Below, piece after piece: positions 15,745 to 24,714 of a DNA stretch of 40,407 bases. Below the pieces are notes generated by a model, which did no database searches, was not told where the DNA came from, and was given only the letters and a program-made list of their open reading frames with translations. A program made the translations under genes and the position numbers. The DNA is from an uncultured Gammaproteobacteria bacterium (GTDB lineage: Bacteria; Patescibacteriota; Microgenomatia; Levybacterales; UBA12049), in NCBI GenBank assembly GCA_964598995.1, contig CAZRDR010000067.1, positions 1 through 40,407 of the forward strand. The letters run 5' to 3'. Every line of letters starts with the position of its first letter. The first letter of the stretch is position 1.

Positions 15745-15996
15745 TTATCTATAGAGCACTGTTCGAGCGATGGCAATAACAATCACTGCTCCTAAGACTG
15801 CGACTACAACGGAATAAAGGTTAAAGCCTGTTACGCCAGAAGCACCAAAGAGATTCATCACAAAACCTCCTACTGCTGCTCCGATGATACCTAATATAAT
15901 ATTCATGAATTCTCCTTGCTCAGCATCAGTGTGCATAATCATAGATGCTACCCATCCTGCTAATGCTCCGAGAACAATCATCAGTAAAATATCCAT
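15745..15996 (-). CDS. GlsB/YeaQ/YmgE family (transglycosylase-associated) stress membrane protein
   Basis: MDILLMIVLGALAGWVASMI...GIIGAAVGGFV is typical of the family. The start was chosen at the Met preceded by AAGGAGGTG with 5-nt spacing. The longer track ORF extending to 16056 is unlikely. Confidence 0.8.
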   Translation of the reverse strand: MDILLMIVLGALAGWVASMIMHTDAEQGEFMNIILGIIGAAVGGFVMNLFGASGVTGFNLYSVVVAVLGAVIVIAIARTVLYR

Positions 15997-16113
15997 ATTC
16001 TCACCTCCTTCCAAGAATGATACGAGTGTATACCTGTGGAGTGAAAACCTCATCAAGAGTAGGTAAGAAATAGCTAAGAACTCCTCTATTGGAGGACTTG
16101 AGGTAAGTACAAC

Positions 16114-17776: not shown

Positions 17777-17827
17777 AAGCTCTTCCATACTATAGCATAT
17801 TTTCTTCCTATTCGTACACAAGTTTGC

Positions 17828-17833
17828 TATAGT
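17828..17833 (+). promoter_or_regulatory. -10 box (tTGCTATAGT) just upstream of the ferric-reductase-domain gene
   Basis: Sequence is TGCTATAGT-aact-ATG. It is divergent from the hpt TGCTATAGT box about 35 bp away. Confidence 0.45.
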
Positions 17834-17837
17834 AACT

Positions 17838-19397
17838 ATGCCTTTCATGCGCTACTCCTCTCTTCGTTTTATCATTTCGTATATTTCACTTCTTCTCGCC
17901 GGTCTCTGCTATGTTTTAGTTATCTCATTTGTTCCTTCTAATCAGCTACGAATCATCCGGCTTGACCAGATCTTCGCCTTTCTCTCACTCATCTATCTGT
18001 ATCTTGCTCTTCTTATTTCTCCACTTTTTACTGTCTTTCCGCAGTTACCCTTTCACAAACAAGCGGTCAAGTCTCGTAGGAGCATTGGCATTTTTTCATT
18101 TATCTATGCTCTTTTTCATGCAAGTTTTGCTTTTTTTGGACAATTACATGGATTTGCAGGACTTAGTTTTCTGACCTCAGATTACTTAATTTCACTTATC
18201 ATTGGCTTTATCGCACTTGAAATCATGCTCGTCTTAGCTCTGACTTCCTTTGATAAAGCGATTGACTACTTATCGTTTTCTCGTTGGAAAATTATTCATC
18301 GATTCGTGTACCTAGCTGGACTATTAGTTCTTATTCATACAGTATTACTCGGAACCCATTACCTAAATTTGGCTGGATTTATACCCGCATTAACCTTTTT
18401 ATTAGTTGCTTTGCTTCTTATAGGTGAGGCACTTAGGTTTGACAGATACCTCAGCAAAAAAAAATATGTAAATTCCAAATTCGGCATCTCTCTAGTCGGA
18501 GTTCTCATTCTGCTAACCATTGGCCTGCTAACTCTTTATGTGCCGACAACTCCTACTTCGCTTGGTATTCATGCTCAACATATTCAATTAGCTAAACTAG
18601 CCCAAAGCTCACCACTTCCTCCTAATGCCCAAGCAATTCCGGGGCTAAATGGTGATCCTCATCTGCGTTATACTGTCAGTCTTAATCACGATACAATTCA
18701 AGCGGGTCAACCAACAAATCTTAATTTCACCGTTTATAACGCCAGCAGCGGTGAGAAAGTAAAATTATTCTCACTCGTCTACACTAAGCTCATCCATCTT
18801 ATTATTGTGGATGAGTCACTAACCTACTTCCAGCATCTCCACCCAACTCAGACAGAAGACGGCTTCCAGATTACAACGACCTTCCCAACTGACGGCAGCT
18901 ATCATTTATATATAAATTTTCAGCCATACGGAGCGATTGAACAACAGATGGCTTTTACGGTCGTTGTGGGTGACAAAGATGCCCTGCCAAAAAGTACTCA
19001 GTCACCAGATACTACTCTTACTAAACAATTTGATCAATACCTAGTCACCCTTGCCTATCCGCAGCCATTAACAGCAGGTCAGCTTTCTCTTGGCCAGCAA
19101 GAGTTGGCCTTCACCCTCAAAGACGCTAAAACCAAACGACCAGTTACCGATCTTAAACCATACCTTGCAGCCTTTGGTCATTTGAGTATGATTAATGAAG
19201 CAACGTTTGATTTTATTCACGTTCACCCTTCTACCCTTACTCCACCAGCGCCTAATAGTAGCGGTGGTCCGACTGTGAAGTTCTTACCACTTGGTCTATA
19301 TGGACCTATTACGCCAGGAATCTATCGTGTTTTCGCAGAATTCAACCCTGATAATTCGTTGCTCACGACTGAGTTTACGATTAAAATTAATCCATAA
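17838..19397 (+). CDS. ferric-reductase-like (MsrQ/YedZ-type, heme b) 6-TM domain + extra TM + two tandem extracytoplasmic beta-rich domains with H-x-H-P motifs
   Basis: The family signatures RRSIGIFSFIYALFHASFAFF and WKIIHRFVYLAGLLVLIHTVLLG are the His-bearing helices. A 7th TM follows. The two repeats end in LIHLIIVDESLTYFQHLHP and GHLSMINEATFDFIHVHP. Confidence 0.7.
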   Translation: MPFMRYSSLRFIISYISLLLAGLCYVLVISFVPSNQLRIIRLDQIFAFLSLIYLYLALLISPLFTVFPQLPFHKQAVKSRRSIGIFSFIYALFHASFAFFGQLHGFAGLSFLTSDYLISLIIGFIALEIMLVLALTSFDKAIDYLSFSRWKIIHRFVYLAGLLVLIHTVLLGTHYLNLAGFIPALTFLLVALLLIGEALRFDRYLSKKKYVNSKFGISLVGVLILLTIGLLTLYVPTTPTSLGIHAQHIQLAKLAQSSPLPPNAQAIPGLNGDPHLRYTVSLNHDTIQAGQPTNLNFTVYNASSGEKVKLFSLVYTKLIHLIIVDESLTYFQHLHPTQTEDGFQITTTFPTDGSYHLYINFQPYGAIEQQMAFTVVVGDKDALPKSTQSPDTTLTKQFDQYLVTLAYPQPLTAGQLSLGQQELAFTLKDAKTKRPVTDLKPYLAAFGHLSMINEATFDFIHVHPSTLTPPAPNSSGGPTVKFLPLGLYGPITPGIYRVFAEFNPDNSLLTTEFTIKINP

Positions 19398-19399
19398 CT

Positions 19400-19924
19400 A
19401 TGCAAAGAATTTTTTCGCTCACGCTTGCACTAGTAATGCTCCTAAGTATCCCGCGACTCGTTTCTGCTCATGTGCTCTTAACCAGTGGCTCAATCGGAGC
19501 AGTCCTCCACATCGATCCTGATGATGACCCGATAGCCAACCAGCCGAGTACTTTTTTCTTTGATTTTAAAGATACTACCAATCACTTCAGTTTGCAGACT
19601 TGTGATTGCCAATTCGGAATCTTTAGTAGTGGCAAACAAATCTTTAATCAGCCACTTCCTGCATCAACAAAAACTACTGCAACTGTGACCTATACCTTCC
19701 TGACTCGCTCTGTCTACACCATAAAAGTAGCTGGTAAGCCAACGGACGGGAGTTCTTTTTCGCCGTTCACCTTAAGTTATGACGTCAGAGTCTCACGAAG
19801 TAGCAATCAACCGCAGACAGAAAATGGTCAATCACCCTATCTTCTCTATATTGTTGGGGTAAGTTTACTTGTTTTTCTTATTATTTTTGTTATTATGAAA
19901 CAGCGAAAAAGTCACGTACACTAA
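19400..19924 (+). CDS. secreted, C-terminally TM-anchored protein maturing to N-terminal His (CopC/YtkA-like Ig-fold suspected)
   Basis: The signal peptide ends ...PRLVSA|HVLL. The mature N-terminus is HVLLTSGSIGAVLHIDPDDDP. The C-terminus has a TM helix plus a basic tail. The gene lies 2 nt after the upstream stop. Confidence 0.6.
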   Translation: MQRIFSLTLALVMLLSIPRLVSAHVLLTSGSIGAVLHIDPDDDPIANQPSTFFFDFKDTTNHFSLQTCDCQFGIFSSGKQIFNQPLPASTKTTATVTYTFLTRSVYTIKVAGKPTDGSSFSPFTLSYDVRVSRSSNQPQTENGQSPYLLYIVGVSLLVFLIIFVIMKQRKSHVH

Positions 19925-20515
19925 ATGAAATTAACTCAAGCTCTTGGCATCATTCTGAGTTCCTTCGTATTTCTCCTTGTCTCCCAGGCGTCTGCCCACG
20001 TTGTCGTCAAACCAAACACTATCGGGATAGGCAGCACTGAGACCTTCAAAGTCAATGTGCCGACTGAGAAAGATATACCAACCGTTGGGCTTCGCCTGCT
20101 GATTCCCTCCGGAGTAACTTCAGTTGTGCCACTGGTAAAACCTGGCTGGACGATATCATTGAAAAAAGATGGTGATACGGTCACTGAGATTGACTGGAGT
20201 AATGGCACAATTCCTCCAGAACAGAAAGATGAATTTAGTTTTAGCGCCAAGGTCCCCGCTAAAGAAACGACTCTAATCTGGAAAGCCTACCAGGAATACG
20301 CAGATGGCAGTATAGTTGAGTGGACTCATGCACCATCAAAAAATGAAGACGACGATGCTAATCCTCCATACTCAACCACGAAAGTCATGAATGACCTCGG
20401 ATCAGCTCCGCCGATAGCTCCGACTACTGACCCATCCCTTCGCGTGATTAGCTACTCAGCTCTTGGGATTGGAATTGTTGCCCTGGGAATGTCCCTAGCA
20501 AAACGGAAAAAATAA
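19925..20515 (+). CDS. ycnI: YcnI family (DUF1775) copper-binding protein
   Basis: SA|HVVVKPNT...TFKVNVPTEKD...PGW...YQEYADGSIVEWTH closely parallels B. subtilis YcnI (AHVSVKP..., YQYYKDGSIVEWTG). It has a C-terminal TM anchor and starts immediately after the upstream stop. Confidence 0.88.
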   Translation: MKLTQALGIILSSFVFLLVSQASAHVVVKPNTIGIGSTETFKVNVPTEKDIPTVGLRLLIPSGVTSVVPLVKPGWTISLKKDGDTVTEIDWSNGTIPPEQKDEFSFSAKVPAKETTLIWKAYQEYADGSIVEWTHAPSKNEDDDANPPYSTTKVMNDLGSAPPIAPTTDPSLRVISYSALGIGIVALGMSLAKRKK

Positions 20516-20522
20516 TCGCGAC

Positions 20523-21380
20523 ATGATCCTCAAAAAATATTTTGTAGTTAGTGTTACTTTCATCGTTCTTCTCTTAACATTGCCTCATCCAGTATCTGCA
20601 CATTTAGCAGGCCAACCGCCATTTTTTTTGATAAACGGTAAATACTCAAGCTACTATCCAATTTATGTCTCATCACTCAAAGATTTTTTATTACCGCAAG
20701 ATAGTGCTCCGGAAAATTATTTGGTTAACCAACCCCTCTCATTTGAAATTGACCAGCAAATGCTTCCTTATCCTGAAGATGTACTCGGCAAGATAATCTA
20801 TATGTGGGATTTTGGTGATGGCACGAAAACAACAGGAGTAAAAACGGAGCATAGCTATACGAAAATGGGATCATATCTCCTAACTATTCATGCAGACTTT
20901 GGTGGATACAGTGATGCCAACACAAAATCACTCATTCAAGCAATACTTATCAATATTTTACCTAAATCTTCTTATCGATTACCAAAAGCCATTATTAGTG
21001 TAAATGACAAGAAAATTACTGACCCAACCACCCAATCGGTAACAATAACCTCACACCCAGTCAGTCTTGATGCAAGGAATTCAGAGAGCGGATCTGCTCC
21101 CATAGTTACGTATATGTGGGATCTCGGCGATGGGAAGAAAAGTGAAGAAAGTAATATTAAACATACATACTCAGATCAAAACCAGCTTTATATCTTTCCC
21201 TTCCTCCGCGTCAAGGATAGAAATGGTTTTATTAGTGACACCTATGTTCAATTCAATAAGACTGTTTCTTCTCCTAAGTCTAATGAGACGAATTCATCAT
21301 CCCTTCCGCTTATTTTGGGATTACTAGGGATAAATATCCTGATAATTACCATAGTAATTACCCTGCTGAAGAAGCGTTAA
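20523..21380 (+). CDS. secreted PKD-domain protein maturing to N-terminal His, C-terminal TM anchor
   Basis: The signal peptide ends ...PHPVSA|HLAGQPPFF. Two PKD-type repeats are present (WDFGDGTKTTGVKTEHSYTKMGSYLLTI and WDLGDGKKSEESNIKHTYSDQNQ). The C-terminus has a TM helix plus KKR. Confidence 0.7.
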   Translation: MILKKYFVVSVTFIVLLLTLPHPVSAHLAGQPPFFLINGKYSSYYPIYVSSLKDFLLPQDSAPENYLVNQPLSFEIDQQMLPYPEDVLGKIIYMWDFGDGTKTTGVKTEHSYTKMGSYLLTIHADFGGYSDANTKSLIQAILINILPKSSYRLPKAIISVNDKKITDPTTQSVTITSHPVSLDARNSESGSAPIVTYMWDLGDGKKSEESNIKHTYSDQNQLYIFPFLRVKDRNGFISDTYVQFNKTVSSPKSNETNSSSLPLILGLLGINILIITIVITLLKKR

Positions 21381-21637
21381 AAGCGAGGCTCTTTAGAGAA
21401 GACAGTTCGCTGTACCATTAAGAGAAGGAGACTCATTGAGAGAACGATAATAAAAGTTGAGATATCTACACCAAATCCTCCGCCTAATAAAAGTGTTGCT
21501 GCTAAGCCGCCTGCAACTGAACCGCTAATACCAAAAAGTATTGATCCGAGGAGTCCACCTTTCGCTTCATTAGTATCAAGAAACCGACTAGCAATTCCTA
21601 TAATGATTCCTAGCCCAATCCAAAGTAATATTGTCAT
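21377..21637 (-). CDS. GlsB/YeaQ/YmgE family stress membrane protein (second paralog)
   Basis: MTILLWIGLGIIIGIASRFL...GSVAGGLAA matches the family. A TAGTAT box lies 7 nt upstream of the ATG and there is no SD. Confidence 0.8.
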   Translation of the reverse strand: MTILLWIGLGIIIGIASRFLDTNEAKGGLLGSILFGISGSVAGGLAATLLLGGGFGVDISTFIIVLSMSLLLLMVQRTVFSKEPRF

Positions 21638-21866: not shown

Positions 21867-22223
21867 ATGTCACAACCAACAAATTATTATAAAGGTGCTA
21901 TCTGGACGACGCATGCACTTGAGCGACTTGGGCAACGCGGCTTATCGCAAGATCTTGCCTGGCAAGCTTTTTCTCATCCTGACCAACACTTCCCAGGCAA
22001 AAATCCTGGAACTGTTGAGTATCAAAAACGTTTCGGGCCATCTGTTGTTACTGTAATCGCCAAGCAGAATGAAAAACGTGAATGGATTATTCTCTCAAAT
22101 TGGATTGATCCACCCTTACCTGGAACAATTGATTACTACAAAAAAGAAGAGTACAAGAGTTATCAAAAGAAAGGCTTCTGGGGAAAATTTTTCTTTACGC
22201 TTAAAAAACAATTATTTGGCTGA
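21867..22223 (+). CDS. hypothetical protein, DUF4258-like (toxin-fold) N-terminus
   Basis: IWTTHALERLGQRGLS resembles the H-A-x-E-R-x-x-x-R-G-I motif of DUF4258. The start was chosen at the internal Met behind a -10 box. The upstream part of the track ORF (from 21732) runs through a hairpin and looks noncoding. Confidence 0.4.
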   Translation: MSQPTNYYKGAIWTTHALERLGQRGLSQDLAWQAFSHPDQHFPGKNPGTVEYQKRFGPSVVTVIAKQNEKREWIILSNWIDPPLPGTIDYYKKEEYKSYQKKGFWGKFFFTLKKQLFG

Positions 22224-22808
22224 TTTATCAGCATCTCTTGCTTTTTTCAGTGCATCAGCCCACCAGTATAATTGATCATTTAATTTCTGCAGCTTCCTAA
22301 CATTTGCTTCAACTAACATATTGCCTGATTCATCAAAGACCTGTTCGCCGCTGAATAAGCCGATATGGACACCTTCGCGAATCGGTGCCATTTGTAGTTC
22401 TATTGCTACCAAGCGCAGATGTTCAACCGCGCGTGAGCCGTTAGCACTTCCGCCATAACTGAGAAAGGCAACGGGCTTATTACTCCATTCATGATAGATG
22501 CTATCTAGTGCGCTTTTGAGAACGGCTGGGTAACTATGGTTATATTCAGGCGTAATAATTAAAAATGCATCGGCACTTGAGATCTTCTCAGCCCATTTTT
22601 GACGAACCTCTGGAGAATATGGTGGTTTGAGCATCCCGGCTGGAATCGGATCATCATAATACGGGAGTTGATAGTCCCGAAGATCCAACAGCTCGACATC
22701 GAAGTTCTTGCAGTCTTTTAATTCCTGCAGCACCCAGGAAGCAATTTTTTCTCCCTGACGATTTTGTCTCGTACTTGCAAGAATAACTTTTAAGTTCATA
22801 ATTGACAC
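22212..22808 (-). CDS. NAD(P)H-dependent FMN reductase family oxidoreductase
   Basis: MNLKVILASTRQNRQGEKIASWV..., ITPEYNHSYP and LSYGGSANG are FMN_red family motifs. Confidence 0.8.
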   Translation of the reverse strand: MSIMNLKVILASTRQNRQGEKIASWVLQELKDCKNFDVELLDLRDYQLPYYDDPIPAGMLKPPYSPEVRQKWAEKISSADAFLIITPEYNHSYPAVLKSALDSIYHEWSNKPVAFLSYGGSANGSRAVEHLRLVAIELQMAPIREGVHIGLFSGEQVFDESGNMLVEANVRKLQKLNDQLYWWADALKKARDADKSAK

Positions 22809-22855: not shown

Positions 22856-23161
22856 ATGGAACCAAATCTGTGTGGAGTCTCTACGACAATTAAAATCATC
22901 GGAAGAAAATGGACTATTCTTATTCTTCACCAACTATGCAGCGGTACCAAACGATTTGGTGAACTGCAGCGTTCACTTCCTGGTATTAGTCCCAAAACAT
23001 TGTCAGAACGATTAAAAGAACTTGAAGAAGACGAGATTGTTAGAAAAAAAATATTTCAAGAAATTCCTCTGCATGTCGAGTATTCACTCACAAGAAAAGG
23101 ACAAAGCTTAAAAGATATTATTAATCAGATGGAAACGTGGGGGGAAACCAAAGGGAATTAG
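22856..23161 (+). CDS. HxlR-family winged-helix transcriptional regulator
   Basis: GRKWTILILHQL..GTKRFGELQRSLPGISPKTLSERLKELEEDEIV is canonical HxlR. Confidence 0.85.
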   Translation: MEPNLCGVSTTIKIIGRKWTILILHQLCSGTKRFGELQRSLPGISPKTLSERLKELEEDEIVRKKIFQEIPLHVEYSLTRKGQSLKDIINQMETWGETKGN

Positions 23162-24174: not shown

Positions 24175-24714
24175 ATGGAGACAGCGACACTTGCAGGCGG
24201 ATGTTTTTGGTGTACCGAAGCCATTTTTAAAAGACTGAAAGGTGTGACTTCAGTTGAGTCAGGTTATTCTGGAGGACAAATGGATAACCCTAACTATGAC
24301 AAAGTTAGTATGGGAACGACAGGGCATGCAGAAGCAGTACAAATCACTTTCGATCCGAACATTATCTCTTACGCGACACTCCTTGATGTATTCTGGAAAC
24401 TCCATGATCCAACGACTCTTAATAAACAAGGCGCTGATGTCGGTACACAATATAGATCAGTCATTTTCTACCATACTGATGAACAAAAGAAAATTGCTGA
24501 AAAATCCAAAAGCGAGCTTGAGAAGTCAGGCATCTATTATGACCCCATCGTGACACAGATCGTACCATTTGAAAAATTCTATAAAGCAGAGGATTATCAC
24601 CAAGAATATTATTATACCAATGCAACTAATCCATATTGCCGCATTGTTATCGATCCTAAAATTACGAAGCTCTATAAAGATTTCTCTTCACTTGTAAAAG
24701 AAGAAAGTAAATAA
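24175..24714 (+). CDS. msrA: peptide-methionine (S)-S-oxide reductase
   Basis: It has the GGCFWCTEA active-site motif and GHAEAVQITFDP. Confidence 0.92.
   Translation: METATLAGGCFWCTEAIFKRLKGVTSVESGYSGGQMDNPNYDKVSMGTTGHAEAVQITFDPNIISYATLLDVFWKLHDPTTLNKQGADVGTQYRSVIFYHTDEQKKIAEKSKSELEKSGIYYDPIVTQIVPFEKFYKAEDYHQEYYYTNATNPYCRIVIDPKITKLYKDFSSLVKEESK

Follow-up and report, generated by a model that had tools for sequence, protein, structure and literature searches.

A ferric-reductase membrane domain encoded with YcnI-type surface proteins: a candidate copper-handling module in Microgenomates-type bacteria

Introduction

Among the described systems for copper at the bacterial surface, one of the closest to the locus considered here is YcnKJI of Bacillus subtilis, in which YcnI, a DUF1775 protein with a signal peptide, an N-terminal His and a C-terminal anchor, is encoded with YcnJ, a CopC-CopD-YtkA protein. 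YcnI supports growth at copper limitation, not excess. To date, it and the members of the CopC family are characterised as proteins that bind or chaperone Cu(II) rather than as enzymes; the roles of the YcnI copper ligands have been described (PMC8424229). No reductase has been reported to accompany the YcnKJI system in B. subtilis.

Membrane redox proteins are known from other settings. Escherichia coli MsrQ (YedZ), the flavocytochrome of MsrPQ, has no fused dehydrogenase, takes its electrons from Fre, a flavin reductase of the cytosol, and normally serves a partner enzyme; the residues that hold its heme and FMN have been assigned (PMC12525009). The eukaryotic ferri/cuprireductases STEAP1-4, with a single outer heme b and an inner flavin, act on Fe(III) or Cu(II) outside the cell and reduce it so that it can be taken up. 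Moreover, CrpH of Bordetella, a PepSY_TM heme protein, and CcoG of Rhodobacter, an iron-sulfur protein, have been proposed as Cu(II) reducers that support copper acquisition or oxidase assembly; their links are with heme-copper oxidases and with an importer of the TonB-dependent type.

Here we describe four genes (g1 to g4) within a stretch of 40,407 nucleotides, hereafter the window, that join a ferric-reductase domain to YcnI and two further surface proteins in a cluster conserved among very small bacteria of the candidate phyla; no description of this combination was found in the literature searched. A preliminary description had suggested an electron-delivering membrane module coupled to copper-binding surface proteins. 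Ligand alignment, N-terminal histidines and synteny support such a reading, and its sequence-level tests all came out in favour. The cluster offers the first candidate, by genetic linkage, for a copper reductase "missing" from YcnI-type bacterial copper systems.

Organisation of the cluster

The four tightly spaced plus-strand open reading frames span 17838-21380 and are separated by 2, 0 and 7 nt, in agreement with the preliminary description (Table 1). The true start of g1 may be the ATG at 17847, which is used by a homolog (P0002) of 80% identity. The promoter-like box noted earlier before g1 was located, and an identical copy precedes the divergent hpt. With up to one mismatch, the 9-mer is not enriched in the window (9 observed vs 9.8 expected), and a scan for consensus promoters did not call the copy before g1.

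Table 1. Coordinates of the cluster and associated features
Feature	Position (nt)	Strand	Description	Basis
Box TGCTATAGT before hpt	17789-17797	-	second, identical box, before divergent hpt	motif position
Box TGCTATAGT 5' of g1	17825-17833	+	putative extended -10-like box	motif position
g1	17838-19397	+	519 aa	ORF analysis
g1, N-terminal half	17838-18545	+	aa 1-236; MsrQ/STEAP-type ferric-reductase domain (six membrane helices) and 7th helix (aa 217-235)	Pfam, BLASTP, hydropathy
g1, C-terminal outer domain	18546-19397	+	aa 237-519; HxxH linker and two beta-sandwich repeats	invariant columns, hhalign, AlphaFold2
g1, outer repeat A	18660-18977	+	aa ~275-380	invariant H320, H333, H335
g1, outer repeat B	19011-19394	+	aa ~392-519	invariant H448, H461, H463
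g2	19400-19924	+	174 aa; signal peptide (VSA/H24), beta-sandwich of ~110 aa, C-terminal membrane anchor	AlphaFold2, Foldseek, conservation
g3	19925-20515	+	196 aa; YcnI/DUF1775; signal peptide (ASA/H25), predicted copper ligands H25, E48, W133, C-terminal anchor	Pfam, 7me6 alignment
g4	20523-21380	+	285 aa; signal peptide (VSA/H27), conserved 'GQPPFF' N-terminal segment, two PKD domains, Ser/Thr-rich linker, C-terminal anchor	Pfam, conservation
FMN reductase	22212-22808	-	NAD(P)H-dependent; tentative cytoplasmic electron donor, outside operon	Pfam FMN_red, E 1.7e-39

The membrane redox domain

Residues 47-164 of g1 match Pfam Ferric_reduct (33.1 bits, cut-off 28), and both His-bearing helices recognised earlier are present, with H94, H154 and H167. 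By BLASTP, g1 is 31% identical to E. coli MsrQ over the four-helix core (E 2e-10). Its predicted heme ligands H94 and H167 align with H91 and H164 of MsrQ, and R80, R81, S137, W150 and H154 are identical to the FMN-pocket residues R77, R78, S135, W147 and H151. These cofactor residues are invariant or nearly so across 22 homologs (H154 in 19/22). STEAP1 aligns at the same two heme histidines with marginal similarity (E ~5e-4), and the histidines of g1 match ligands assigned experimentally in both proteins. Hydropathy gives seven membrane segments. Since the loop at 197-216 carries 4 Lys/Arg, it should face the cytoplasm and residues 236-519 should lie outside the cell, where the preliminary description had placed the C-terminal half on account of the seventh helix. 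This predicted topology puts the residues of the flavin site in loops on the cytoplasmic side and a His-rich domain of 284 aa on the outside.

g1 would bind heme and flavin, in an arrangement resembling that of STEAP proteins. Heme dependence had already been implied for the organism; as the redox domain is of the MsrQ/STEAP type (one heme and flavin), dependence on flavin is implied as well. Microgenomates-type bacteria are generally regarded as incapable of heme synthesis and poor in copper enzymes, which counts against copper reduction as the role of the cluster; organisms bearing g1 are also not known to have quinones or a respiratory chain, a difference from MsrQ.

Like MsrQ, g1 carries no fused dehydrogenase, and a soluble flavin reductase is therefore the presumed electron donor. 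An FMN reductase encoded outside the operon could serve, but a homolog occurs near g1 in only 2/40 other loci (L007 and L035), which makes the link weak and counts against copper reduction as the role of the cluster. STEAP2-4, in contrast, have a fused cytoplasmic NADPH domain and no outer metal-binding domain, and CrpH and CcoG belong to families unrelated to g1, are not linked to YcnI/CopC-like proteins and are not fused to a copper-binding outer domain.

Could g1 be a true MsrQ that repairs oxidised envelope proteins in the manner of MsrPQ? MsrQ is its best NCBIfam match, the cofactor residues are conserved and an msrA gene lies 2.8 kb from the cluster. However, g1 scores 40.7 against an MsrQ equivalog cut-off of 130, differs from MsrQ in its extra seventh helix and its outer domain, and has no MsrP-type molybdoenzyme beside it in the window or in ~40 related loci; its fused partners instead appear to be metal-binding domains. 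We consider a repair role highly improbable.

The anchored surface proteins

As described earlier, g3 is a YcnI homolog (DUF1775, 81.6 bits, cut-off 25, E 1e-22) with the same architecture as its B. subtilis counterpart. Alignment with the YcnI structure 7me6 (E 1.9e-20) matches His27, Glu50 and Trp137 to the predicted ligands of g3, and this triad, present in 31/31 orthologs, would form the same Cu(II) site. Further, g3 is accompanied by two modules reminiscent of YcnJ, a CopC-like fold in g2 and a remotely YtkA-like domain in the outer half of g1. The earlier statement that CopC-CopD/YcnJ and YcnK are absent accordingly stands for CopD, which has no counterpart, and for YcnK, but not for these two modules. 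In place of the CopD permease, the membrane part is here the heme/flavin ferric-reductase domain.

While g2 belongs to no Pfam family, its AlphaFold2 model (pLDDT 90.3) has a CopC/CrdA-like fold, with CrdA (CopC-family, TM 0.73), PmoD, FetP and FtrA (TM about 0.5 for the last two) as the best Foldseek matches. The likeness of the model to CopC-family and periplasmic copper proteins points to copper. Conserved residues are H24 (36/36 orthologs), H37 (35/37), D42 and C68-x-C70 (CxC in 37/37). From the secondary structure of the model, H37 lies across from H24 on the neighbouring strand of the predicted first hairpin. By sequence g2 falls outside the CopC family, and its second His follows the first by 13 residues, whereas in CopC it lies near the C-terminus. 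The family of g2, so far unannotated, comprises 1,745 clusters at 50% identity.

In g4, Pfam detects PKD_4 (E 1.8e-20) and PKD (E 8.3e-15). Profile searches, overall, returned the anticipated Ferric_reduct, DUF1775 and two PKD matches above threshold; the likewise anticipated assignments by Pfam of g2 to CopC and of the g1 outer domain to YtkA were not obtained, which counts against the copper-reduction reading.

The signal-peptide junctions VSA/HVLL (g2), ASA/HVVV (g3) and VSA/HLAG (g4) were all found and obey the -3/-1 rule, and all three proteins end in a hydrophobic helix and a basic tail, as had been noted. Because the Ala/His junction is kept in orthologs from related genomes (all 36 of g2, all 31 of g3 and 21/24 of g4), it appears to be more than chance. 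The proposal of an exposed N-terminal His thus holds throughout for g3 and for g2, the mature form of which should begin with His, and mostly for g4, where Asn takes its place in 3 orthologs.

The resemblance of g2 to FetP and FtrA bears on a different metal. In reductive iron acquisition, g1 would be a surface ferric reductase and g2-g4 Fe- or Cu-binding proteins like FetP, P19 and FtrA; the family name Ferric_reduct, the STEAP analogy and ZIP transporters that adjoin the cluster in 3 loci are in line with this. Nevertheless, g3 retains the YcnI Cu(II) triad, g2 matches CrdA better than FetP, relatives of the g1 outer domain are tied to copZ, copA and csoR rather than iron genes, and no iron permease (Ftr1, EfeU or FetM) was found. 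An iron system is very unlikely.

The outer domain of g1 and its standalone relatives

The outer domain begins with an invariant HxxH linker (H245, H248), followed by two repeats that are homologous to each other (hhalign probability 96.5%, E 7e-10), predicted by AlphaFold2 to be all-beta and only weakly similar to Pfam YtkA. The six repeat histidines are invariant also in archaeal, acidobacterial and Peregrinibacteria relatives. Moreover, an uncharacterised family of standalone secreted proteins is homologous to the domain along the whole tandem repeat, with all six histidines kept. Of the eight standalone genes examined, seven lie in metal-efflux loci, two of them of the RND type and five of the form copZ–X–copA, with CsoR or DUF305 added in three of the five. 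A copZ-like HMA gene and a copA-like P1B-ATPase gene flank the standalone gene in M. smegmatis, Streptoalloteichus, Sphaerisporangium and Amycolatopsis; it adjoins copA, copZ and csoR in Brevibacillus, and RND metal-efflux genes in a cyanobacterium and a Patescibacterium. These copper operons are a second line, independent of the fold of g2, that points to copper as the metal of the cluster. Unlike g1, the standalone proteins are not fused to a ferric-reductase domain, and in place of YcnI and g2 they are accompanied by Cu(I) efflux ATPases or RND pumps.

Such company raises the possibility of copper resistance or sequestration rather than uptake. The surface proteins would buffer or relay copper leaving or approaching the cell, the role presumed for the standalone proteins beside CopA and RND pumps, and the ferric-reductase domain would fix the redox state of sites such as the CxC thiols of g2, or of the copper bound there. 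This would suit the efflux loci, some with CsoR, a csoR-copA pair 2.3 kb from the cluster in one locus (L004), the lack of an importer and a locus without the redox domain (see below). On the contrary, B. subtilis YcnI helps growth when copper is limiting, the window holds no efflux pump or copper sensor, and outward electron flow would yield the more toxic Cu(I). We judge resistance unlikely. The efflux and resistance operons of the relatives, and the absence of any obvious detoxification benefit in making Cu(I) from Cu(II), also count against the copper-reduction reading.

A candidate mechanism

Overall, we consider it somewhat more probable than otherwise that the cluster specifies a module for handling copper at the cell surface, driven by transmembrane electron transfer: electrons from the cytoplasm would reduce Cu(II) to Cu(I). 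Two variant loci lend support, with the csoR-copA pair near the cluster in L004 and a Met-rich linker in L043 (see below). In g1, an MsrQ/STEAP-type flavocytochrome b, the inner-face flavin would be loaded by a cytoplasmic NAD(P)H:flavin reductase, and the electron would then move to the one heme b, close to the outer face, and on to copper at the outward His sites, namely the HxxH of the linker and the three His of each repeat. The membrane-anchored g2 and g3 would capture Cu(II) at their mature N-terminal His sites, a CopC-like fold with His24 beside His37 in g2 and the His/Glu/Trp 'mono-histidine brace' in g3, and pass it to g1. Reduction would free the metal from Cu(II)-selective sites for Cu(I)-competent ones (the CxC of g2 and the His clusters of g1), from where it could move onward to an importer or a copper enzyme of the cell surface, either of them encoded outside the cluster; g4 would be an optional extra surface component. 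We infer the binding of heme, flavin and copper and electron transfer to copper; which way the electrons run, what accepts them and the hand-over between proteins are likewise proposals, and the purpose could be acquisition or detoxification.

Copper bound by three His or by an N-terminal His is characteristic of catalytic centres, and three-His sites are more usual there than in chaperones, which counts against this copper-reduction reading and suggests a surface copper-dependent redox enzyme system rather than trafficking. The heme would then supply electrons to catalytic copper centres, formed in g1 by the three-His sites and in g2, g3 and g4 by sites resembling a histidine brace, which would reduce O2 or reactive oxygen species, or oxidise envelope or host polymers as LPMO and PHM do, by analogy with MsrQ and MsrP or cellobiose dehydrogenase and LPMOs. 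Service to a partner enzyme is usual for MsrQ, no importer is encoded, and PKD domains, as in g4, often accompany polysaccharide-active surface enzymes. However, the YcnI and CopC-family proteins characterised so far were not described as enzymes, the copZ-copA efflux operons of the outer-domain relatives favour trafficking, and searches with the four proteins returned no family with a catalytic or substrate-binding function. An enzymatic role appears rather unlikely.

Conservation and gene neighbourhood

Neither the operon nor the window encodes a copper importer (CopD, CtrA- or Ctr-type) or a copper regulator (YcnK, CsoR or CopY), which counts against the copper-reduction reading. Dozens of genomes of the Microgenomates type share this order of genes. 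In 29 related species-level genomes with enough flanking DNA, g2 lies 3' of g1 in 28; g3 is present in 25 and g4 in 18, and all three genes in 16. The position of g4 varies between downstream of g3 and directly upstream of g1, and with 18/29 loci and the three Asn-bearing orthologs it is the weakest member of the cluster. In a Daviesbacteria locus (L043), the outer domain and g2-g3-g4 occur, but the surrounding 8 kb encode no ferric-reductase domain; at least one lineage can hence dispense with the redox module, a further count against the copper-reduction reading. The L043 variant carries a Met-rich 'MQMSEVMQNMPGM' linker where g1 has HxxH.

The cluster and its immediate surroundings

The four genes lie in one tightly packed plus-strand array and comprise g1 (a ferric-reductase membrane domain, a seventh helix and a six-histidine outer domain), g2 (a protein of CopC-like fold), g3 (YcnI/DUF1775) and g4 (a PKD protein). 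The gaps between successive genes are 2, 0 and 7 nt. The g2, g3 and g4 products each carry a hydrophobic signal sequence ending in (V/A)-S-A with a histidine immediately after it, and each ends in a hydrophobic helix with a basic tail. ORF calls and Pfam searches thus agree with the layout, gaps, domains, Ala|His junctions and C-terminal anchors of the preliminary description. Of the CopC-CopD (YcnJ) partners of YcnI, which that description calls absent, neither CopC nor CopD had a Pfam match in the 24 window proteins scanned, which included the operon and its flanks.

Features of the window and of related loci (L numbers, other genomes)
Feature	Sequence	Position	Strand	Remark
TGCTATAGT box, identical copy	window	17789-17797	-	hpt side
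TGCTATAGT box	window	17825-17833	+	ahead of g1
g1	window	17838-19397	+	ORF, 519 aa
g2	window	19400-19924	+	ORF, 174 aa
g3	window	19925-20515	+	ORF, 196 aa
g4	window	20523-21380	+	ORF, 285 aa
Small Gly-rich membrane protein	window	15745-16056	-	near cluster
Small Gly-rich membrane protein, paralog	window	21377-21637	-	stop overlaps g4 stop by 4 nt
NAD(P)H-dependent FMN reductase	window	22212-22808	-	FMN_red
HxlR-type regulator	window	22856-23161	+	divergent to FMN reductase
MsrA	window	24175-24714	+	near FMN reductase/HxlR pair
H-P-C-C membrane protein	L012	11097-11462
H-P-C-C membrane protein	L005	10048-10407
H-P-C-C membrane protein, fused form	L021	9536-10360
MCYNCGC protein	L031	5840-6118
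MCYNCGC protein	L033	4628-4894
MCYNCGC protein	L035	1157-1441
His-rich membrane-anchored protein	L019	6445-7086
His-rich membrane-anchored protein	L021	6438-7139
His-rich membrane-anchored protein	L022	6428-7075
DUF4396 membrane protein	L045	10047-10925		near standalone six-His protein
DUF4396 membrane protein	L054	7328-7852		near standalone six-His protein
Six-His outer domain on one N-terminal anchor	L043	7773-8759		Daviesbacteria

The 5' neighbour of g1 is a divergent, hpt-like phosphoribosyltransferase gene. Within the 48-nt spacer between the two, the TGCTATAGT boxes stand back to back, and on both sides an in-frame ATG follows 13-14 nt past a -10-like hexamer (hpt 'MAKILF', g1 'MRYSSLRF'). 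This arrangement suggests a pair of divergent promoters giving mRNAs that would be leaderless or have a very short leader; a promoter and terminator scan gave no signal over shuffled background and did not call the TGCTATAGT box. The true start of g1 may be the ATG at 17847, because a homolog 80% identical to g1 (P0002) starts there. On the 3' side, g4 faces a convergent gene for a small membrane protein, one of two paralogous Gly-rich proteins near the cluster that look GlsB/YeaQ/YmgE-like by eye (Pfam assigns no family to the one beside g4); the pair recurs at the syntenic locus L007. The FMN reductase, HxlR and MsrA genes form a small redox/oxidative-stress neighbourhood just 3' of the cluster.

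The gene association is recurrent rather than sporadic, as the preliminary description would lead one to expect. A conservation scan with one genome per species yielded 44 loci, 29 of which had enough flanking DNA for synteny counts. Of these 29, 28 have g2 directly after g1, 25 have g3, and 18 have g4, which sits either downstream or just upstream of g1; the three partners occur together in 16. The full-length g1 fusions belong to Microgenomates-type candidate phyla (Daviesbacteria, Curtissbacteria, Levyibacteriota).

The membrane half of g1: a predicted heme–flavin core

Pfam Ferric_reduct matches g1 at 33.1 bits (cut-off 28) and also matches 20 of 22 homologs. By BLASTP, g1 aligns with E. 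coli MsrQ at 31% identity over 121 residues (E 2e-10). In MsrQ, His91 and His164 hold the outer heme b, and Arg77, Arg78, Ser135, Trp147 and His151 form the FMN pocket (PMC12525009). Each of these cofactor residues has an aligned counterpart in g1: H94 and H167 for the heme, and R80, R81, S137, W150 and H154, respectively, for the flavin pocket. The predicted heme pair lies on helices 3 and 5. Across the 22 homologs, which are 46-80% identical, H94 and H167 are invariant, conservation of R80, R81, S137 and W150 reaches 90% or more, and 19 retain H154. The g1 family profile further aligns with STEAP1, with both heme histidines coinciding, so that the heme ligands expected of a ferric-reductase domain are indeed retained. 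On sequence grounds, residues 1-210 of g1 are assigned to the ferric-reductase superfamily, in the MsrQ/STEAP single-heme subgroup where a flavin pocket replaces the inner heme.

Hydropathy and the positive-inside rule predict seven helices, with the Arg-Arg and Ser/Trp loops cytoplasmic and H167 near the outer face. Helix 7 comes after a Lys-rich loop on the cytoplasmic side (197-216) and would therefore export residues 236-519; hydropathy and charge thus place the C-terminal half of g1 outside the cell, where it had been proposed to lie.

Kinship with MsrQ raises the question of MsrPQ-like repair. The core is MsrQ-like, yet by its sequence g1 is not an MsrQ: it scores 40.7 against an equivalog cut-off of 130 (NF003831). 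An MsrP-like gene was found neither in the window nor in the related loci, and we reject this reading, to which we give a very small chance, because the MsrP partner is lacking.

The outer half of g1 and its standalone relatives

Directly past helix 7 comes an invariant H245-x-x-H248 linker, followed by two domains predicted to be all-beta. The two are homologous repeats (hhalign, 96.5%, E 7e-10), each with three invariant histidines (H320/H333/H335 and H448/H461/H463) in the pattern H…(12)…H-x-H-P. Pfam YtkA matches are weak, at 14 bits for g1 (cut-off 25.9) and in 6 of 22 homologs (best E 3.6e-4); precomputed YtkA matches also exist on several standalone relatives. A sequence search of the outer domain against the PDB returned chance-level matches only, and a fold search with the full-length g1 model gave generic tandem Ig/FnIII matches. 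The Zn/Cu-binding protein Zcp (DUF4198) appeared there at ranks 2 and 4 and was set aside, its TM score being only ~0.26. The idea that g2 is a third copy of the repeat was likewise discarded, as the profile comparison was not significant (17% and 2% probability).

A profile search with the outer half retrieved at least 660 proteins, most of them standalone, ~300 aa long and labelled 'secreted' or hypothetical, from Actinobacteria, Brevibacillus, cyanobacteria, haloarchaea and candidate phyla. The six histidines are invariant down to the most distant members. Gene neighbourhoods were inspected for eight of the standalone genes, here called X. The order is DUF305–HMA–X–HMA-P-type ATPase in M. 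smegmatis, CsoR–CsoR–HMA–X–ATPase in Streptoalloteichus, HMA–X–ATPase–DUF4396 in Sphaerisporangium and HMA–X–ATPase in Amycolatopsis; in Brevibacillus, CopA, CopZ and zf-CopZ lie on one side of X and CsoR on the other. RND metal-efflux pump genes adjoin X in a cyanobacterium and a Patescibacterium, and X in Stackebrandtia has no metal-related neighbour. Seven of the eight are thus in metal-efflux loci and five in textbook copper loci, and HMA and X share 4 nt in Sphaerisporangium and Amycolatopsis and 11 nt in M. smegmatis, where the two genes overlap. This placement in copper-efflux operons ties the outer domain of g1 to copper independently of YcnI. Reductive iron uptake, in which a ferric-reductase core of this kind would serve iron, is in our estimate quite improbable beside these copper-linked relatives. 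The neighbourhoods of the haloarchaeal and Peregrinibacteria relatives were uninformative except for one DUF4396 gene. In one haloarchaeon and one actinobacterium (L045, L054), DUF4396 membrane proteins are encoded close to the standalone six-His protein; the family may be a further, so far unrecognised partner in copper loci.

Three secreted partners with N-terminal histidines

The assignment of g3 to YcnI/DUF1775 is borne out by its sequence: Pfam DUF1775 scores 81.6 bits (cut-off 25, E 1e-22), and an alignment with B. subtilis YcnI (structure 7me6, E 1.9e-20) begins at the first residue of the mature protein. In YcnI, His27, Glu50 and Trp137 are the Cu(II) ligands of a 'mono-histidine brace' (PMC8424229). 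Their counterparts in the alignment are H25, E48 and W133, and the triad, taken as a mature N-terminal His, a Glu 23 residues on and a Trp ~110 residues on, is present in 31 of 31 orthologs from the related loci.

Neither Pfam nor NCBIfam classifies the g2 family, which comprises 1,745 clusters at 50% identity; among the family matches listed for g2 and 29 homologs, none was to Pfam CopC at E <= 1. Fully or nearly invariant in the family are A23|H24, G33-A34-V35, H37, P40, D42, P44, C68, C70, F100, Y106 and R130. Orthologs in the related loci keep H24 in 36 of 36, so that cleavage at the predicted site would expose histidine as had been supposed, H37 in 35 of 37 and the CxC pair (C68/C70) in 37 of 37. 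An AlphaFold2 model (pLDDT 90.3) shows a beta-sandwich flanked by the signal peptide and a membrane helix. The best PDB match is CrdA of H. pylori, of the CopC family (TM 0.73, E 3.5e-5), followed by PmoD, FetP and FtrA; the best matches are copper proteins. The modelled fold is accordingly that of a CopC-type beta-sandwich, in a sequence outside Pfam CopC. The Cu(II) site of CopC consists of His1 and a C-terminal Asp-x-His, whereas g2 offers its N-terminal His and H37 on the neighbouring strand, with D39-D43 after it. Judged from secondary structure alone, H24 and H37 face each other across the first predicted hairpin (strands 25-29 and 32-39), and this adjacency would provide the geometry needed by a histidine-brace-like site; in the canonical brace of LPMOs, an N-terminal His and a second His form a T-shaped Cu site. 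The 532-aa homolog P0359 resembles an acyltransferase–g2 fusion but was set aside: it still has a signal peptide in its interior and appears to be two genes called as one.

The g4 protein has two PKD domains above the gathering score (PKD_4 73.2 bits, PKD 55 bits) and a conserved 'GQPPFF' segment after its mature N-terminus. The proposal that it too exposes an N-terminal histidine holds for 21 of 24 orthologs and fails for the other three, where the residue is Asn. It is the least secure member of the cluster, with no hint of metal binding beyond that histidine.

A proposed copper-handling module with its own electron supply

The best-supported reading, which we hold with moderate confidence, is that the cluster encodes a module for handling copper at the cell surface that has its own source of electrons. 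Electrons would pass from NAD(P)H through a soluble flavin reductase to the inner flavin of g1, then to its outer heme b, and on to copper at the outward-facing histidine sites. Cu(II) would first bind at the N-terminal-His sites of g3 and g2; once reduced, it would leave as Cu(I) for CxC and His sites and then for a target encoded elsewhere. The FMN_red gene, 0.8 kb downstream of g4 on the opposite strand, is a tentative electron donor; it does not qualify as a conserved partner, since such a gene lies near g1 in just 2 of 40 other loci, in L035 directly upstream of g1.

As to the purpose of such a module, YcnI biology favours acquisition, and the operons in which relatives of the outer domain lie speak for efflux. 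A copper resistance or buffering module, which that efflux context would suit and YcnI biology would not, is judged unlikely. A copper redox-enzyme system, drawing on the same predicted heme–flavin core and histidine sites, is rated rather unlikely. A joint reading of all the parts goes further: g1 could be a new transmembrane heme–flavin–copper oxidoreductase whose six-His domain would hold catalytic copper centres wired to heme. We consider this unlikely; if true, g1 and its N-terminal-His partners would carry out extracellular redox chemistry for an ultra-small host-dependent bacterium, for example by reducing O2 or ROS or by attacking envelope polymers of the host or of the cell itself oxidatively, as LPMOs do, and the standalone relatives encoded in copA operons would then be cuprous oxidases or copper enzymes that await discovery.

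The favoured reading, copper handling with an electron supply, bears on a wider problem. N-terminal-His Cu(II) chaperones such as CopC and YcnI hold Cu(II) very tightly, and the reduction and release of copper from them is an acknowledged gap. By fusion and conserved gene order, the cluster joins YcnI to a transmembrane electron-transfer protein, providing a concrete and testable reductase candidate. Every part falls in or resembles a known kind, namely the MsrQ/STEAP redox core, YcnI, a CopC-like fold, a YtkA-like domain and PKD. No description was found in the literature of a ferric-reductase fusion to a copper-operon domain clustered with YcnI and a CopC-like protein, nor of YcnI/DUF1775 in combination with MsrQ, YedZ or a ferric/cupric reductase. 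The only bacterial cupric-reductase candidates, CrpH and CcoG, are both unrelated to g1, and a 2026 B. subtilis study of the YcnJ/YcnI pathway reports no reductase known to act with YcnJ. Two large unannotated families thereby gain a working hypothesis, namely g2 (1,745 clusters) and the six-His tandem domain (at least 660 matches), which occurs in actinobacterial copZ-copA operons, including that of M. smegmatis. Microgenomates-type bacteria are usually seen as fermenters that have neither a respiratory chain nor heme synthesis. The conserved cofactor residues would make the cluster dependent on heme and flavin in organisms usually described as lacking heme synthesis, which implies that these bacteria would keep a heme- and flavin-dependent outward electron route.

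Variant loci

The related loci contain further genes around the conserved core. In 11 loci, a gene between g2 and g3 encodes a small membrane protein of two helices with a conserved 'H-P-C-C' motif and a conserved 'R-S-P-P' at its C-terminus; the ~270-aa forms of g2 carry this protein fused to their C-terminal end, and Pfam has no family for it. Six loci have an adjoining cytoplasmic protein of ~90 aa that starts 'MCYNCGC..PDDDMGHPDNIT'; also without a Pfam family, it is possibly a metal sensor or chaperone because it is Cys-rich. Upstream of the g4-g1 cluster in L019, L021 and L022 stands a membrane-anchored His-rich protein ('HIHANFGVF…HLHD…HIHD'), and downstream in L021, L022 and L036 a Cys-rich protein of ~370 aa, both unannotated. 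Other metal-related genes of the variant loci encode ZIP and HupE/UreJ transporters and a csoR-copA pair. In the window, the H-P-C-C, MCYNCGC and His-rich proteins and ZIP were sought and none is present, and HupE/UreJ, CsoR and CopA-type proteins had no Pfam match among the 24 proteins scanned.

Many cluster-bearing MAGs (L003, L004, L007 and others) are titled 'uncultured Gammaproteobacteria' and one 'Sulfotelmatobacter'; records with a clearly Patescibacteria-type cluster under such titles look mislabelled or mis-binned. Some fusion-bearing genomes are labelled Saccharimonadales. In the Daviesbacteria locus L043, the protein with the six-His outer domain has no ferric-reductase domain; one N-terminal anchor ties it to the membrane, its linker is Met-rich ('HTQMQMSEVMQNMPGM'), and g2-g3-g4 still come after it.
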